DNA from: Centroscyllium fabricii
Lineage: Eukaryota
Assembly: GCA_051313645.2 (NCBI GenBank)
Contig: JBNRSN020000008.1
Coordinates: 105,028,001 to 105,092,000, forward strand
Reading direction: 5' to 3'
DNA length: 64,000 nucleotides
Positions within the stretch are counted from its first letter, which is position 1; every line of letters begins with the position of its first letter. Both the position numbers and the translations under genes were made by a program. Positions 28,106 through 48,835 of the stretch are shown piece by piece. The notes beneath the pieces are model-generated. The model saw only the letters and a program-made list of their open reading frames with translations, did no database searches and was not told the origin of the DNA.

Positions 28106-30245
28106 CTGGAGTAAAACATTAAAATCAGACTGAATCAGCCATGCAACAATGTCTCAAATGTGCTATCAAATCCTGATAAACCTATTTGCTACAAAATATG
28201 ATGCTTGGATCAAAATCATTTATGATCACTCTCCCCCAGATGATCCTTTACTATGTGATTGCAAATTAACCCTGTGTCATCTTCTATGTTTCTTCTATGT
28301 TTCTATGTTTAATACACAAAACAAGATCGAAAATAGCCTGTTCCCTGTTTGGTTCCATAATGTATTGTTCTAGGAAACTGTCATGAATTCTTTCCATGAA
28401 CTCGTCCTCCAGACTAACCTTGCCAATTTGATTTGCCCAGTCTATATGAAGATTAAAATGAATACCTTTGTTACAAGCTCCATTATTTTGTGATTAACGC
28501 TCTGTCCAATGGTATAGCTACTGTTAGGGGGCCGATAAGCTACTCTCACCGCTGTTTTCTGCCCCTTGTTATTTCTTATCTCCACCCCTAATGGTTCTCT
28601 ACTTCCTGATCTTCCAAGCCAAGATCCTTTCTCACTACTGTCCCACAGAGAGGTTAAAGAATGCGAGGAGCAATAATGCACCACTGTCACAGAGAATGTA
28701 ATTTGTGATTTTTTTTAGGGCCTTTTCAGTGCTGTGGGAGGGGTGGAACCCTAATTGCAGGATTTCAACTGGAGAGTTCAGGGACAGATGGATGCAGATC
28801 TACCAGGCATCAATATTTTTAAGAACTTTGGTGAGGAAAAGTAGGTTGCAGTTGGGGTAGTTTGCAGGGACAAAGGTTTTTTTTTGAGAAGGGACTGATA
28901 ATGGCAATCTTAAGGTTGGAGCGCAATGCTCCCTGTAAGCTGCGCTTTGTTCCGTGCGGCCCGTTTCTTTTAGTGCGTGGTCCCTTTATACTTCCACGCA
29001 TACGTGGTATTTACAATGGAAAAGCTGGTGAGTGGCCTGCGCGAGACATTTCCTATTACTGTGCGGCTGACGGTTCATTGGTGGAGAGCGGTGCTTGTTT
29101 ACATACAGGATGATCAGGTTAGTTCTTCCAGGCTCAATAGAAGTGCTTGTTGATGTTTAACATATAAATTCCAGTGTGCTGTCACTAGTGAAAAAAATCG
29201 GCGATTTGAACGCGATCTCTCCAGCTCTCGCAGCTCTCGACATCGCGTTCAAATTGCCGATTTTTTTCACTATCACCAAAATATATAAAAACCTTCACAT
29301 TTACAACCTGTAAGACCACAAACAAATATCTCCAAAGGAATTTTTTTTAAATTACCTTTAAACCTGTTTTTTTCACTTCTCAAACCTGCCTGAATTTCAA
29401 TCGACATTTTTAAACGAAAAAAAGCGTACGGACAAGTCGGACCCCCTCCCCCCCAGCGTACGGTTTGTACGCTCGGGAAAATGTTGAAAATTGTGAAGGG
29501 CCCCTAACAACAAAACAATTAGCAAAATTTCACAGAAACATTAGGCTTCTAAAATATACCATTTTAAGTGAAGTTTCACAATGAATTGCTTCTATTTTAA
29601 TGGATCAGTTAAAAATGACTAATTACAGATTGATTTATTTAACGGTTAGGCTCAGATGCCTGGATCAGGAATTATGTACATTGGGAGTGAATGGATTCAG
29701 GCTTGGATTAGTTAGTTTTGTGAAGTATTTGTAAAATATCAGTCAGTTAAAGTCAGTTTTTAAAAATTGGCTTTCACCAGAACTTCCTGGATTTATTGGA
29801 TGTGGTCCTATTCCCTCCCTAACCCTTCTTTCTCCTCTTTTAAGACGTTCCTTAAAACCACCTCTTCAACCAAACTTTTCATCACTCTTGCTAATCTCAT
29901 TCTTGGTTTGGTTTCATTTCCCTCAGACCTCTGCGAAGCACCTTGGGAGTTTTTCCACATTAAAGGCGCAATATAAATTGCAACTTGCTGCTATTGTTAA
30001 ATTAGTTTTTTTTTAAAACCCTCTCCCAATTATGCAATTAAAACCCACAAATTCTGCCTGGTCTTCATGCTGAAAATTGAGCCGTGAGATGTGTATGCAT
30101 CATACTTGTGACATTATCAGTGCAATCACATCATAAATGTGGTGCACACTCATCACGGGACTTGATTTTCAGTATCAAAGTCTTCCAAGGGAGATGTAAG
30201 AAGTCACACAACACCAGGTTATAGTCCAACAGTTTTATTTGAAAT

Positions 30246-30280
30246 CGCAAGCTTTCGGAGCGTTGCTCCTTCATCAGGTG
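30246..30280 (-). ncRNA. Minimal type I hammerhead ribozyme motif (Penelope pLTR), stem I mismatch
   Basis: CAC-CUGAUGA-A-GGAGC-AAC-GCUCC-GAAA-GC-UU-GCG. Confidence 0.6.
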
Positions 30281-31764
30281 CAAGAGAGATGCATTTAAAC
30301 ACAGCATATACAGACGGAGAACAATGTAATCTTTCCAACTGCCCTACATCACACCTCGGCAGAGAGACATTCATAGCAATCAAAGGTGTGAATGGTGTTT
30401 AAACAGATCAGTCAGTCAAGCAGGCACCACTCTAGGAACAATGAGGTGCAGTCACAAAGGGTCAAATGTTGCAGTCTGGGTCTGTGTGAAAACCCACACA
30501 GAACAATAAAAAAAAAAGATTTTTCTTGCTGGAAATCGCAGCCGGTACAGCCGCATCTGCGTGGTGAGGACAAGCCAAAGACGACTCGAGCCTGGATGAC
30601 TCTCCATCAGGTGGGGTCACATGTAGCGCGACATGAAGCCAATATCTCGGTTGAGGCCGTGCTTATGAGTGCGGAACTTGGCTATCAGCCTCAGCTTGAC
30701 GATGTTGCATTGTCGTGTGTCTCGAAGGCCGCCTTGGAGAATGCTTACCCGAAGATCGGAGGCTGAATGTCCTTGACTGCTGAAGTGTTCCTCGACTGGG
30801 AGGGAACACTTCTGCCTGGCTACAGGAGAAACTACGCCATGTTCTTCGCAGCCTTCAACATGTCATCGATGACGACAAACACCTTGCTAAGGCCATCCCC
30901 ACGCCTCGACTACTCGCCTTCAAACAGCCGCCTAACCTCAAACAGACCATCATTCACAGCAAATTACCCAGCTGTCACAAGAACAGCGACCATGACACCG
31001 CACAACCCTGCCACGGCAACCTCTGCAAAACGTGCCTGATCATCAGCACAGATACCATCATCACACGTGAGGACACCACACACCAGGTACATGGTACATA
31101 CTCATGTGACTCGACCAACGTTGTCTACCTCATACATTGCAGGAAAGGATGCCCCGGAGCATGGTACATCGGCGAGACCATGCAGACACTACGACAACGG
31201 ATGAACGGACACGGCACAACAATCGCCAGGCAGGCGTATTCCCACCCAGTTGGGGAACACTTCAGCAGTCAAGGACATTCAGCCTCCGATCTTTGGGTAA
31301 GCATTCTCCAAGGCGGCATTCGAGACGCACGACAACACAAAATCATCTAGCAGAGGCTGATAGCCAAGTTCCGCACTCATGAGCCCGACCTCAACCGAGG
31401 TATTGGCTTCATGTCGTGCTACATGTGACCCCACCTGACGTAGAGTCATCCAGACTCGAGTCGCCTTTGGCTTGTCTTCACCACGCAGATGTGGCTGTAC
31501 TGGCTGCGATTTCCAGCAAGAAAAATCTTTTTTTTAAACTGTTCTGTGTGGGTTTTCACACAGACCCAGACTGCAACATTTGACCCTTTGTGACTGCACC
31601 TCATTGTTCCTAGAGTGCTGCCTGCTTGACTGACTGATCTATTTAAACACCATTCACACCTTTGATTGCTATGAATGTCTCTCTGCTGAGGTGTGATGTA
31701 GGGTAGTTGGAAAGATTACATTGTTCTCCGTCTATATATGCTGTGTTTAAATGCATCTTTCTTA

Positions 31765-31799
31765 CACCTGATGAAGGAGCAACGCTCCGAAAGCTTGTG
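31765..31799 (+). ncRNA. Minimal type I hammerhead ribozyme motif (Penelope pLTR)
   Basis: CAC-CUGAUGA-A-GGAGC-AAC-GCUCC-GAAA-GC-UU-GUG: core boxes, 5-bp stem II, palindromic AGCU stem III, CAC/GUG stem I. Confidence 0.72.
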
Positions 31800-31967
31800 A
31801 TTTCAAATAAAACTGTTGGACTATAACCTGGTGTTGTGTGACTTCTTACATTTGTCCACCCCAGTCCAACACCGGCACCTCCACATCATTTCAAGAGAGA
31901 ACAATAGAAAACGCTGGAGAAACTCAGCCGGTCAGGCAGCATCGGTGGAGAGAGAAACAGAGTTAAC

Positions 31968-32830
31968 GGGGGGGATTTTCAGAGGGCCGTGAAGGCGGGT
32001 TTCCGGCGGGGCGCGGGGTAAAATCACAATTCCGGCAGGCGGGAAGCCACCCCGCCGGATCCCCACCCATTTGCGATTTTCCTCAGGCAGGTTTTGCCGC
32101 CCCGAATGTTTCCCACCGGCGGCGATGCAGAATGAGCTCGTTGAGGGCCCTTAATTGGATGGGTAATCATATTTTAAGGGCCCTCAGTTATGTTAGCCCT
32201 CTTCCCACCCAAAACCCGCCTGGTGGGAACCCCGCCGGTGAAAGGTGGTGGGCACCCAGTCGGCTGGGTGTCTGCCACCTTCAAGGCATGGGCACAGTAC
32301 CCACACAGCAGCTGCCACCCAAGGGTGGTTAACTTCAGAGTCCCAAAACATAGAAATCACACCTTTAAATCCCTGCTATTCATATAGAGATTGGCATGCT
32401 GCGCTGTCTGTGAGCCAAGCTGTCAATCACCCAGGGGATCAGTTTCTGTTTACATTCCATTGAAACCACAAACAAACGGTGACTCACTTCAACTGTTTGT
32501 TTTATGGTTTTAGTGTTCCCTTTCAGACTCTGACATTTCAAAGGCTGTGTCAACATGGAAACAAAGGAACCACTTGAGCACTGTCAATCAAGCTTAGTGG
32601 TTTCTTCCTACTCAGGCTATTCAGGCCTGCCAATCAACAGCCCGCCCCACTCAAACTGTGAAGGGAAAGGGCTGCGTTCCCGCCCAATAGTGTGTATTGG
32701 AAGCCCAGCAGACTGGCGGCGATTTAATTGGCCACTTGAGCCCAAATCATTTGGGCCTCCCAGGTCCTTGGGCGGGTGGGGACAGAAAGCTAACCCGACA
32801 GCTTCCCACATCTTATTAAAAATTCCCCCC
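31968..32830. mobile_element. PIF/Harbinger-type MITE
   Basis: GGGGGGATTTTC...AAAATTCCCCCC termini, 3-bp TSD AAC/ATC; removing it restores the fold-back arm. Confidence 0.8.
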
Positions 32831-33153
32831 ATCGTTTCAGGTCGATGACCTTTCTTCAGAACTGGCGCAGCCGGGAGGAGGGATAGATTTTAAAGCTTGT
32901 TGGGGCTGGGGAAAGCGGGGTGGGACTTAAAGAACAAAGGAAAGATCAGAAATTCAAGGAACAGAGGATGGCTCTGGATAGGTATGAACGGCTCTTTTCT
33001 TTTTTTTTCTTTACTCTGCCAGAGCCGTTCACACCTATCCAGAGCCATCCTGTGTTCCTTGAATTCCTGATCTTTCCTTTGTTCTTTCAGTCCCACCCCC
33101 CATTTCCCCAGCCCCAACAAGCTTTAAAATCTATCCCCCCTCCCGGTTTCTCC

Positions 33154-33190
33154 AGTTCTGAAGAAAGGTCATCGACCTGAAACATTAACT
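33154..33190 (+). ncRNA. Minimal hammerhead ribozyme motif, second family
   Basis: AGUU-CUGAAGA-A-AGGUC-AUC-GACCU-GAAA-C(A)UU-AACU; the opposite arm has G at the A position, giving an ACGU palindrome. Confidence 0.65.
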
Positions 33191-34480
33191 CTGGTTCTCT
33201 CTCCACCAATGCTGCCTGGCCTGCTGAGTTTCTCCAGCATTTTCTGTTGTTATTTCGGATTTCTGCAGTATTTTGCTATCGCGTCTTTCGAGAGAACTGT
33301 CCTAAAGACTTGAGAGGAGTTCAGATTTAAGCAGCAATAAGTGTTAAAGTTCAATTCATAGACTGGTTCCTGGTCAAAGAGGTTATCAAGTAGAAATGGG
33401 TATTTTTTCTTTTGTTAAGAGAACCTTGTGTTTGCTTTGTTCCAGGTTTCCATTGGTGATAATTCTCATCACCCTCCCCCCTCCAATTAATAATTAACTT
33501 GGACTAAAAATTTAATTTAAAAAAGCTGTTGATTTGGTCACTGTTTAATTCTACTTATTGTTGTTTATTCCCCTCCATATCATGAGGTTAAATGAAAAAA
33601 AAAAATTATTCATTCATTATGTGTTATTTTGTACACACAAAAAAACTTAGACAAAAGTACTGGAGAGAATATAAAAAAAATTAACGTGGAAAAGTTCTGT
33701 TTTAATGAGATAACTGAGTGTATAGACAGGTTACATTGTGCTTGACTTCTAGCAGAAATAGATTTGTGGCCCCACAAAGACCAGCTGTTCTTGCCCACTG
33801 TAGTATCGACCTTAAAAGCTTTTTTTTTAAATAACTAATTTGTTTTCTTGGTAAATTTCCAAATAAAAACTGATTTTCTTTATTGATTTTCCTCCAAATT
33901 TAATCTGGCATCTTTTGGGTTCAATGCTTGCCTGGTTGTTCATACTAAAAATTGAATCTGAAAGGCACCTGAAAAACCCCAGGTTTGTAAAATCAACAAT
34001 AAAACCGACTTTAATCATCCATGCTGATACAGAACTTCCTATACAGCATGCAATAAGCATGCCACTCATGTATCACACAACAATATAATTGATCTTCATT
34101 TTTTTTTTTTTTTTTAAAGGTTAGTATGTTTTGACATGTACAGGATCATCCCATTTTGGATGGAAGTTTCCACATGACTCCCCAGACAGCAAATTTCTGC
34201 CCTGGTCCTGTGATCAAAATGAAGCAACAACCAAGCACTAAACTCCTTCCCAGAGGACGGGAAGGAGGTAAAAGATAATTAGCGAAGTGCCGAGATATAG
34301 TTAACTCAGCCGGCTCTTGTGCACATCCCAGTGGTTGGTGCAACACCACTACTGGGGAAGCTCTGGGAACAGTTCACTTTTCTACCTCTTAGATACCAAA
34401 AGAGAACAAATAAAAACCTTATGCAGATTTAGCAATATTTTCTGCAGTCTGTTTCCTTTAAGAGAAAGGTCCATGGTTAC

Positions 34481-34610
34481 CTGCTGCTGCTTTCTCCACA
34501 TAGTGGAGTTCATTGTAGAAGAGGGATACATCAGGGTACTTTTCTTTGATGACATTTGCAATGTAATGTAACAAGGTTTGTTTGCGATCTGTTGACTTAG
34601 TGTCTAAAAG
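34481..34610 (-). CDS. FMNL2: FMNL2 FH2 exon ([43 protein letters not shown])
   Basis: TAG acceptor, GTAACC donor, 130 nt. Confidence 0.96.
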
Positions 34611-34742
34611 CTACCAAAGGAAAAGAATAATTAGGCTCAAGCAGTTTAATATATTGATTAATCTTGCATACAGTTAAATGTATAATGCATTTTCATTTAT
34701 AAGTTGTATATTTGCTACAAATTTATAATGTGGATCTCTTAC

Positions 34743-34823
34743 CAGGTCTAAACTCTGCAGCTTAAATCCATACACTGCTCCCCTCTTACTGCTGTTCATG
34801 TAGTTGCCAAGAGCCAAAATTAT
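34743..34823 (-). CDS. FMNL2: FMNL2 FH2 exon ([27 protein letters not shown])
   Basis: GNYMN FH2 signature; AG/GTAAG sites; 81 nt. Confidence 0.97.
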
Positions 34824-35782
34824 CTACAGAAGGTTAGAAAAATTAAATTAATAGCCAGTGACAGAGTTGGATAAATTGGAAACTTGTGATATATTGCAAT
34901 GACTTGCTGGTGATATTATTGTGAATAATTAACACTTTTGCAGTACATCTGGTGATGGGCACCATTTCATCCATTTGATATTCAATTAGTGACAAATGGG
35001 TTTTATTTCAATGTTCCATAATTTTAACAGTAAATTCAGTTACTATTCAATTTTTATTGGCCTTAACTGTCCAAATTCACAATCTTACAATACAGCAGGA
35101 TTCTTCAGCTGCTGAAACTTTCTCCTTAAATATCAGAGATAAAGCAGAGTTTTGAGTACTGCATCAGTCTAGCCTTTAAAATTCACTTCTAAGTAAATCC
35201 AAAGCAATAATTCTCTAACTCTGTGAATATTGGCATTTTTAAACAATCATGAGTAGATTTCCCTTGGCATTGCACATAGTGAGTCAGCAGATATGTTAGA
35301 AGTTTGAGAGCGATGAGGTGAGTAACAGTGAAGTAAGTAGACAGTGGCAAAATCTTTTTTAGATTAAGTCTGGAAATTTGAGCCAATCAAAAAACTGTGA
35401 CAGATTATTTGTACTATGAATACATTTAAGACTTATAGGCAAGTCTTTTAATGTATAAGTACACCATCTTCTATGATATTCATGTGTAGTTTAGATTTGG
35501 AGCACACTAGAGTTCAGCTGCTAAGGTGGAGCGATGTTAAAATTGACTGGTCCCTCTAAGGCCACTGCTTAGATACTCGTGGAAAAACGATCTAAACTAG
35601 TGATTCGCTGAGGCTAATTGTAGAGGGAAGTTTCTGTAGATTTACAGCTACTGTAAATTTTATCCTAGGGGTGGGGTGGGGTGCCGGGGGGGGGGGGGGG
35701 GGGGCTGCAGGAATATGCCAGGTTATCAAGGTCAGAAAACAAATAGCTGGAAATGACTGTCTTTTTGACATTCTGAAGCATG

Positions 35783-37419: not shown

Positions 37420-37804
37420 ATGATGTCTGATATACGATGGAGGCACACATATTTTCCGATCACAGGTCTCCCGCAGGCAGAGGCCTGCGATCTGGGAAAA
37501 TCTGCGCCCTTACCTGAGGGCTCCCGGGATGCACACGCTTCCGCTCCTGGGCCTCTCCAAACTTGAAGTGCGCAGGGCCCACGTATCCCAGGGGTGCAGG
37601 TAGTTCGCAGCGTTCCTGGATTTCACGTGGGCCATGGGGAGCCAATCACAGAAGGGAATCTCCCTTCATACATTTGACAGGAAGACCTATCCAGGCGTAA
37701 CAATTGTAAGGGTTTTCTGTGGGCGGAGTGTCTCCAAAAAGCAGAACTATCTGCCCGGAGAGGCCGTTCTCCAGGGCAGCCAGAGGCTCTGTCAAGACCA
37801 TTCT

Positions 37805-37945
37805 GATGTGGAGGTGCCGGTGTTGGACTGGGGTGGACAAGTGTAAGAAGTCACACAACACCAGGTTATAGTCCAACAGTTTTATTTGAAATCACAAGCT
37901 TTCAGAGCGTTGCCCCTTCATCAGGTGTAAGAGAGATGCATTTGG
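37805..37945 (-). mobile_element. Solo Penelope pLTR fragment with hammerhead motif (37893-37927)
   Basis: Reverse complement of 31750-31888; CAC-CUGAUGA-A-GGGGC-AAC-GCUCU-GAAA-GCUU-GUG. Confidence 0.8.
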
Positions 37946-39001: not shown

Positions 39002-39784
39002 GGGGGTAAATTTTCCCTCGGGTGTGGGGAATTGGCGGGCTTCTGGTGGGTCAGGTTTCCCACACGAATGCTAAAGGGCCTGGGAGCCCCACGCAATTTT
39101 GGCTCAATTGGCCAATTAATTCCCCGCGTGTGGGAATCCTTGCCACTTGACTATTTTCAGTATGAAAGTCGGCGGGGTGCCGGCTGCTTAAAGCCCAGAG
39201 CCCCATTACAAAGCGAAGTAAACTGCAGCCCTTTGATTGACGGGTCCAGGTCAGTTATAATGGGAACTGCTGCAGCACAACTGTTTCATTGACAGCTAGT
39301 GGAGAGCTATCTGTCAAACATTAAAAATGAGCTGCAAAGTGAGTTTTTGAAAGCCTTTTTCCTCACTGATATTGTACACCCTGGGGATACAGTTAGCCCT
39401 CCTGCAGGCTGCTGCCCAGGGACGACTTCTGCTACAGCTGTTTGCATGTCATCCTTTGACTTGCAGCTGTTTGTCAGCAAGCCAATTGTGGCCCCGCCAG
39501 GTTTCACTGACGGGGTTTCAAGCTAGCGGGTTATGGGTGGGGAACACCGGAAAATAGCAAGGGGACCTTAAAATAGCATTATACATGTCAATTAAGGGTC
39601 CTTAAGGAGCCGAACACCCATTCCCGCCGGTCACGGGCGGGAAAGATTTGGGGCGGCAGACATGGCGGTGGGAAATTGCAAAGTGGCGGGAACCTGGCGG
39701 GGTGGGTTGGGACCCCCCTGGTTTTGCTATTTTGGGCCCTCCCCGCCGGAAAACCCAGCTCATGGCCCAAGGAAAATTGACCCC
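39002..39784. mobile_element. PIF/Harbinger-type MITE
   Basis: GGGGTAAATTTTCC...GGAAAATTGACCCC termini; homologous to 22644-23758. Confidence 0.78.
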
Positions 39785-48000: not shown

Positions 48001-48835
48001 GGGGGGAATTTTTCCGGAAGGGCGGGAACCTGGCGGGGATTGGTCGGGGCGGCTTCCGGTTCCGCCCGCCCAACCAGCTGGGAAGGCCACACAATTTTAG
48101 GCTAATGAGGTCGTTAAATCCCCGTCGGCGGGAGCGGCAGGTAATTAGGTGAATCGGGTCGGGCTGCAGCGGAGCTGCGAGCACTTTGAGTGAGAGTTCC
48201 AGCACTGGTTGTTGTCAGTTCCCATGGCAACACTCCACTGTGACATCACAGTGGAGTGGAGCCAATGGGAAAGGCCAAGTGCTGGTGACTGACAGGTGGG
48301 CGGTCGGGCTCCGAATCCCTCACAGCTCGCAGCAGCTGAGAGGCCATCGTGAGAACTGAAATTGCTCAGTTTCTGGTCTCAGCTGATATTGAAGGCAGAA
48401 CGGAGGTACTTACTCCTCTAAGGTGCTGGAGGCATGCCAAGCGTTTGGCAGCATGTCCTTCAGACCTTAAAGGAGAAAGTAATAAATTCAGGAACTCACA
48501 CAACACCAGGTTATAGTGCAAAAGTTATAAGCAGCGCTGTGCTCCCACTGGGTTTCACCCAGCGGGGTTTAAGGTGACGGGGTATGGGCAGAAAACAGCA
48601 CAAAATGGCTGAGGGCCCTTAAAATGGCATTAAAAATGGCAATTAAGGGCCCTTAACGAGGTGACAACCCATCCCCGCCGGTCGGCGGTGGGAAGTTTCG
48701 GGGCGGGGAATCTGGGGGCGGGAAAATGAGAAAGCGGCGGGGATCCGGCGGGGAGGGGTGGGACCCGCCGGTTCCGCTATTTTGCCGGCCCGGCCGCCGA
48801 AAACCCTGCCTCACGGGGACATGAAAATTCCCCCC
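48001..48835. mobile_element. PIF/Harbinger-type MITE
   Basis: GGGGGGAATTTT...AAAATTCCCCCC TIRs with ATA TSD. Confidence 0.82.

Follow-up and report, generated by a model that had tools for sequence, protein, structure and literature searches.

A fold-back Penelope-like insertion with a hammerhead motif in each arm, in an FMNL2 intron of Centroscyllium fabricii

The window analysed here is a stretch of 64,000 nucleotides from the shark Centroscyllium fabricii (contig JBNRSN020000008.1, positions 105,028,001 to 105,092,000 of the forward strand), and the element in question is a fold-back insertion at 30194-31888, within an intron of the formin-like gene FMNL2. The gene occupies the minus strand: tblastn with the shark formin-like protein P0034 maps 13 stretches within the window, an exon peptide is identical (100%) to shark formin-like protein 2 over 91% of the query, and the named matches of this peptide are mostly FMNL2. 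Protein matches and exon mapping confirm the view of a first-pass annotation, made from the letters alone, that an FMNL2 pre-mRNA is read from this strand. The host intron (28107-34481, ~6.4 kb, minus strand) is bounded by residue 884 of P0034, which ends at 34482, and by residue 885, which starts at 28106, with GT and AG present.

The insertion is built on an inverted repeat whose arms, 30194-30820 and 31225-31851, align over 627 nt without gaps, with 38 differences (94% complementary) and an inter-arm spacing of 404 nt. The repeat claimed by the first-pass annotation is borne out, its right-arm start (31224) being one base off. The right arm (plus strand) is part of a longer direct copy, 30825-31888 on the plus strand, corresponding to the last 1064 nt of a Penelope-like element (PLE). 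Other copies enter the upstream open reading frame (ORF) at 30825; the direct copy is therefore 5'-truncated at this point, and the four bases 30821-30824, which are unlike the continuation of either arm, are a junction filler. The left arm (30194-30820, minus strand) is an inverted, 5'-truncated and tail-less copy of the 3' part of the element, with the last 68 endonuclease codons (tblastn to residues 576-643 of the shark homologue P0001, an RT/GIY-YIG protein, at 79%), the 3' untranslated region (UTR) and the hammerhead. The unit extends to 31888 because a 37-nt A/C-rich (73%) tail (31852-31888, plus strand) is present on the right side only; a separate copy at 37804 ends at the equivalent base. 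A probable target-site duplication flanks the whole (30183-30193 and 31889-31899), its copies matching at 9 of 11 positions, with two transitions; 0.6% of random position pairs score equally high.

The direct copy encodes, at 30826-31428 on the plus strand, the C-terminal 200 codons of a reverse transcriptase (RT)-endonuclease (EN) ORF, with a Cx4CxxC linker and a GIY-YIG-type endonuclease with CCHH, 82% identical to residues 444-643 of P0001. The natural stop is at 31426-31428, and a premature in-frame stop lies at 31348-31350, where other copies have G. The GIY-YIG C-terminal peptide quoted by the first-pass annotation is indeed found across the spacer and right arm, in the plus-strand frame 30784-31350, which contains VVYLIHCRKGCPGAWYIGET..RMNGH. 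Shark RT plus endonuclease ORFs match this stretch at E 2.6e-82, whereas Pfam GIY-YIG reaches only a sub-cut-off E of 0.013. The protein P0002 likewise remains under the Pfam cut-off (E 0.00025). The CCHH endonuclease signature is present, with two cysteines between GIY and YIG (VVYLIHCRKGCPGAWYIG..NGH..GEHF). In P0001, which carries RVT_1 (E 5e-9) and a DKG motif (ADKGG), the RT lies upstream of EN in a single ORF; the RT portion has been lost from the window copy through truncation. In the ESM Atlas, the clusters neighbouring P0001 (at 0.97) are of RT/GIY-YIG type, and a PDB sequence search with it returned nothing significant (none below E 0.49). The 82% match, the 627-nt inverted copy and the 37-nt tail support the earlier attribution to a Penelope-like element with an inverted pseudo-long terminal repeat (pLTR).

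The RT-EN linker has the sequence CHGNLCKTC in the window copy, compared with CHSNLCKTC in P0001. A CX2-5CxxC linker is described for Neptune and Nematis and not for Penelope or Poseidon in PMC8557442, and Neptune and Poseidon are the widespread vertebrate PLE groups in the sample of bioRxiv 10.64898/2026.07.22.740005. From linker motif and host range, the element is likely of Neptune type. Pieces of the endonuclease also turn up inside shark gene models labelled septin 5a, XRCC5, cytochrome P450 2C31-like, IQCK, FSTL5 and others, which may reflect exonisation or annotation error.

The family was compared with contigs of sequencing runs X1, X5, X13 and X16, which contain at most 54% of the sampled words and whose majority letters possibly come from related species. 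As many as 92,884 X1 contig records align to the 1.1-kb stretch, indicating very many decayed copies, and summed X1 contig depth is ~10-16 million over the 3' 120 nt versus ~1-3 million in most ORF bins. Both end types of the insertion occur in other copies: loose ends lie at 31887-31889, with 544 X1 contigs switching to unrelated flanks at 31889 (the tail end), and joints depart from 31844-31855. Loose ends at 30825 enter the normal ORF in three of the four runs (X1, X13 and X16). In some copies the ~35-nt tail is tandemly repeated (joints 31889/31890 to 31856; 7 contigs in X1, and X5 too). Counts of A>G places across multi-copy contigs (29 in X13, whose RNA origin is a guess, and 22, 23 and 19 in the others) are uninformative on editing.

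Within the window, a separate 140-nt copy of the family (37804-37943, minus strand, 97% identical) comprises hammerhead and tail, is sense in the pre-mRNA and has two G.U wobbles in stem II; its 5' end differs from that of the fold-back and it has no inverted arm. Together with 31749-31888 of the right arm it forms 140-nt inverted repeats (97%) around FMNL2 exons 34482-34832, an arrangement that might promote back-splicing, with the local hairpin expected to compete. A 46-nt fragment at 48484-48529 (minus strand) is 85% identical to the region immediately 3' of the hammerhead. No account of this shark family was found in the searched literature, which included few subscription papers and did not cover Repbase.

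The hammerhead pattern CUGAUGA-A-GGAGC-aac-GCUCC-GAAA-GC-U-U is present on the plus strand at 31768-31796 and on the minus strand at 30277-30249. The right-arm motif (31765-31799, plus strand; 46.5 bits with the custom model R1) has an intact CAC/GUG stem I and is antisense in the FMNL2 pre-mRNA. The left-arm motif (30246-30280, minus strand; 38.8 bits) is sense, with a predicted cut between 30249 and 30248; it reads GCG where the other two copies read GUG, so that an A.C mismatch breaks the middle stem I pair. Helix I amounts to 3 bp in both the right arm and the copy at 37.9 kb; in the left arm the middle one of these pairs is broken. All three window copies keep an intact core, and the changes among them are wobbles or mismatches without compensation. 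The first-pass claim of a hammerhead with palindromic stem III in each arm holds as a motif: the full descriptor, which asks for the core, a stem II with 4 bp or more, palindromic N15.2/N16.2, U16.1 and H17, is matched at three places in 64 kb, namely both arms and the 37.9-kb copy, whereas 50 mononucleotide shuffles give 0.02 on average. The bare core pattern is weak (11 sites versus 4.69 expected). The Rfam covariance-model check went against the claim, with 0 hammerhead hits at gathering scores over the whole window and, when E was relaxed to 10 over 30000-33500, 15 matches of which none was a hammerhead.

Related motifs were drawn from metagenomes with a pattern that fixed only CAC, the core, G10.1/Y11.1 and AGCU and gave at least 120 matches. 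Among the matches listed, 23 have a stem II of at least 4 bp, and 16 of these also carry the closing GUG of stem I, which the pattern left free, versus 4 of the 97 that lack such a stem II (7 of 13 versus 0 of 68 after collapsing to 81 groups); the 97 listed loci are mostly chance. None of the listed matches belongs to the shark family studied here; the best alignments at the DNA level span 41 nt (L032 and L058). ORF pieces related to P0001 are found at 4 of the 16 loci with both stem II and GUG (L013, L032, L050 and L058) and at none of the other 12; the related element at L058, 48% to P0001, has an endonuclease, a UTR, the identical stem II and the beginning of an inverted arm. Across 12 distinct related motifs, 95% of cells pair, and at five of nine pairs, in stems I and II, both partners change. 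The covariation score is 0.614 versus 0.167 shuffled and at most 0.194 slid, in rows that were preselected for having stems and that represent related metagenome motifs, not variation within this family. The alignments omit L092 (likely chance, with G at 17 and no G10.1-C11.1) and the near-duplicates L050, L052, L058, L087 and L101. At the level of sequence, the covariation shows that the architecture recurs across differing sequences; it says nothing on cleavage. Model R1 finds all three window copies at E 5e-10 to 6e-8, the next match being at 0.94, and is partly circular: its training motifs were fetched by a window-derived pattern and L032 has the same stem II sequence.

Decay of the two arms can be read against the family. 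Among the 40 of 165 variant rows listed, 21 fall in the arm; two were excluded (other letter below 90% of X1 depth), leaving 19. At these 19 right-arm departures from the letter held by at least 90% of X1 depth, the left arm agrees with the family at 17, carries a third letter at one and shares the departure at one (31614). By this count, right-arm changes make up 18 of the 38 differences between the arms, and the remaining 20 are presumably left-arm changes. Transitions account for 27 of the 38, 12 of them in CpG-type context, and the Kimura two-parameter distance between arms is 0.064. Such near-equal decay of both arms is as expected for a dead insertion, and the divergence fits one insertion followed by ~3% neutral decay per arm. 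Very probably, the fold-back is one insertion, dead on arrival, of a Penelope-like retrotransposon that bears an endonuclease and is likely of Neptune type; its hammerhead is likely a passenger, predicted to be masked by the fold-back.

The layout is one already known from Penelope-like elements. Published descriptions (PMC8557442; PMC3846280) include an inverted copy that is 5'-truncated and sits at the 5' end, a one-ended tail of 30-40 bp, and duplications of 8-10 bp, and architecture of this kind is typical according to Craig 2021 and Arkhipova 2013. Like Neptune/Nematis-type endonuclease-positive PLEs, the element has a GIY-YIG domain with CCHH after the RT, a CX2-5CxxC linker and 5' truncation (PMC8557442; PMC3846280), together with an adjacent inverted truncated copy, a one-sided tail, a near-3' hammerhead and a probable target duplication close to 8-10 bp. 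Unlike them, the window copy has neither a direct-repeat pLTR pair nor an RT, and shows a 404-nt loop with filler in place of a palindromic junction.

The motif itself resembles the minimal hammerhead ribozymes of PMC4209133 in its type I core, the extra nucleotide between 9 and 10.1 (after A9), G10.1-C11.1, palindromic 15.2/16.2 and absence of helix III. In that paper, dual motifs on opposite strands are separated by 100-700 bp, against ~1.5 kb here. The motif of this insertion has CUU as its cleavage triplet, a helix II of 5 bp (7-8 in Schistosoma) and a helix I of 3 bp (4-5 reported); a fourth pair, retained in relatives, is mismatched. Such motifs number thousands per genome (Cervera 2014). 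Non-LTR retrozymes also have a type I hammerhead of PLE pLTR origin and occur in cartilaginous fish (bioRxiv 10.64898/2026.07.22.740005, a survey covering one such fish), but they are non-coding tandem repeats with same-polarity hammerheads, whereas the window element is inverted and keeps endonuclease-coding sequence. Assignment to this class, which requires at least two consecutive non-coding hammerhead units, was rejected, the window having no tandem units.

The arrangement suggests how the insertion may have formed. The RT-endonuclease would have nicked both target strands ~11 bp apart, and two cDNAs would have been primed on opposite strands from two 3' initiation sites, giving the tail end at 31888 and the tail-less end at 31851. 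Both would have stopped early, after 1064 and 627 nt, and would have been joined head to head across 4 untemplated bases. In the active element, the hammerhead likely processes tandem transcripts, either as a dimer or aided by the element protein. The model draws on PAc, a Poseidon element of Anolis carolinensis, which in vitro cuts and extends both strands, with a tail bounded by two RT start sites in an AC-rich region; its hammerhead cleaves only with protein and is dispensable for insertion in vitro (PMC11167929). As in PAc, the hammerhead is followed by an AC-rich region and two 3' ends define the tail. Unlike Poseidon, the window element has the linker Zn-finger motif, and whereas the PAc ORF starts at stem II, the frame opened by the core ATG in the window ends at TGA after nine codons in the right arm and the 37.9-kb copy, two of the three copies, and an ORF start at this ATG was rejected.

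Two-strand priming is fairly probable as the route, set against snap-back or template jumping. Under snap-back, a less probable alternative, a single cDNA would have stopped at 30825, folded at 31225, copied itself outward and halted 37 nt short. The arms would then have started out identical, which accords with the letter they share at 31614, and self-priming has been proposed (PMC3846280). The junction, however, has neither palindrome nor microhomology, the 4-nt filler matches neither continuation, and a self-copying strand has no reason to halt at the tail boundary, which is also an end in other copies.

That the fold-back belongs to a non-autonomous family mobile as a unit, like a hammerhead-bearing miniature inverted-repeat transposable element (MITE) or retrozyme, is very unlikely. 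The high copy number of the 3' 120 nt in X1 depth and the presence of a second, adjoining fold-back hammerhead element speak for mobility of this sort. Against it, the loose ends at 30825 lead into normal ORF in three of four runs, no joint from 30825 to 31225 is among the joints listed (a single-contig joint, 30825-31304, is ambiguous), tandem units are absent from the window, and the copy at 37804 differs in 5' end and has no inverted arm.

Folding predictions bear on any effect in the host transcript. In the predicted pre-mRNA fold, 601 of 627 left-arm nucleotides pair to the right arm in helices of up to 80 bp, opening the left hammerhead would cost +55.9 kcal/mol, and the predicted lowest-energy monomer and dimer folds differ from the hammerhead fold. 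The first-pass expectation that the FMNL2 pre-mRNA would hold a long hairpin and a sense motif is therefore met in its first half by a predicted hairpin of ~600 bp, whereas the implied presence of a usable ribozyme beside it is weakened, the motif being mismatched in stem I and predicted to be buried. The two arms fail as dimer partners on polarity: they face opposite ways, so that only one of the two reverse-complementary motifs is sense, and a dimer between them was rejected. Given the masking, the A.C mismatch in a 3-bp stem I and the non-hammerhead lowest-energy folds, self-cleavage of FMNL2 RNA at the left-arm hammerhead appears unlikely. A long intronic dsRNA is the likely predicted outcome, and it could plausibly serve as an ADAR substrate.

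A working cis-regulator of FMNL2 is likewise very unlikely. The sense hammerhead would dimerise with the same-polarity copy at 37889-37933 and cleave, or that copy would pair with the right arm across exons 34482-34832, promoting skipping or back-splicing. The core is intact in three copies, the right arm and the 140-nt copy, complementary at 97%, flank two exons, and conserved intronic hammerheads are known in amniotes (PMC6155905). Yet the left arm has its stem I mismatch, there is no sign of protected sequence, the local 627-nt hairpin should beat a 140-nt partner 6 kb off, and the lowest-energy monomer and dimer folds predicted are not the hammerhead. Published minimal PLE hammerheads, moreover, cleave poorly even as dimers (PMC4209133) or require protein (PMC11167929). 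An assembly artefact is practically negligible: long inverted repeats are sometimes sequencing or assembly errors, but a fold-back chimera would not account for 38 arm differences with transition and CpG bias, arm-specific departures from the family, or a tail and target duplication at the expected places.

Several points weigh against a single dead-on-arrival insertion, formed by two-strand priming and carrying a masked hammerhead of a Neptune-type element. The putative target duplication copies mismatch at 2 of 11 positions, the single-template claim depends on one shared site among 40 of 165 variant rows, and one single-contig joint (30825-31304) is ambiguous. A single locus cannot separate dual priming from snap-back self-priming or template jumping, and self-priming is favoured for palindromic junctions (Arkhipova 2013). 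No Rfam hammerhead was obtained over 30000-33500 at E up to 10, miRNA-type models matching the neighbouring hairpin instead. Masking derives from equilibrium folding prediction, and the Neptune label from linker motif and host range.

The surroundings of the insertion are rich in repeats. A 41-bp near-perfect hairpin (88%, 5-nt loop) lies at 29186-29272 in the same intron. A second fold-back, of another hammerhead-bearing family and with no ORF seen, begins 11 nt past the tail (~31900-33276); its arms (31900-31966 plus 32833-32995, and ~33021-33251) enclose a 25-nt loop, an extension is present on the right side only, and its motifs, with stem II AGGUC/GACCU, lie at 32835-32859 (minus strand) and 33158-33182 (plus strand). 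Its left arm is split exactly at the hammerhead (GAAACG) by an 870-nt MITE-like insertion (31967-32832) with G-run/C-run terminal inverted repeats, relatives of which lie at ~39457-39777, 48609-48835 and 53572-53739. Three similar copies of target sequence (30173-30193, 31889-31899 and 33277-33294) suggest nested duplications, in which the second element would have inserted first and its left duplication would then have received the studied element. In several contigs derived from other loci, the tail-less end (31844-31855) is joined to the end of the second family (31900/31906/31908), hinting that the two families often insert side by side, although such joints are possibly a mere effect of abundance. 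Further along, an uninterrupted 464-codon reverse transcriptase frame (61655-63046, plus strand; RVT_1 E 1e-33), which we take from its motifs to be CR1/L2-like, lies antisense within an FMNL2 intron.

A single locus of this kind is of little import, being one among very many decayed copies. It is nevertheless a clean example of the inverted-pLTR-plus-tail product, in which both 3' ends, the filler and the target duplication are legible. In the FMNL2 pre-mRNA, the right (antisense) arm would be transcribed first and the emerging sense hammerhead would pair with it. It is conceivable, if rather improbable, that such insertions carry a built-in silencer: their own antisense arm would hide the hammerhead and an AAUAAA (30239, minus strand) in dsRNA, so that the insertion is tolerated, while solo sense copies such as 37804-37943 would still be able to cut or truncate the host pre-mRNA or to pair across exons. 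If so, shark introns would be depleted of solo sense copies and not of fold-backs, and one-sided tails would document, in vivo, that a PLE dimer primes on two strands. Sets of such copies could test the two-initiation-site model derived from the anole element, and whether self-masking lets hammerhead-bearing insertions persist in introns.

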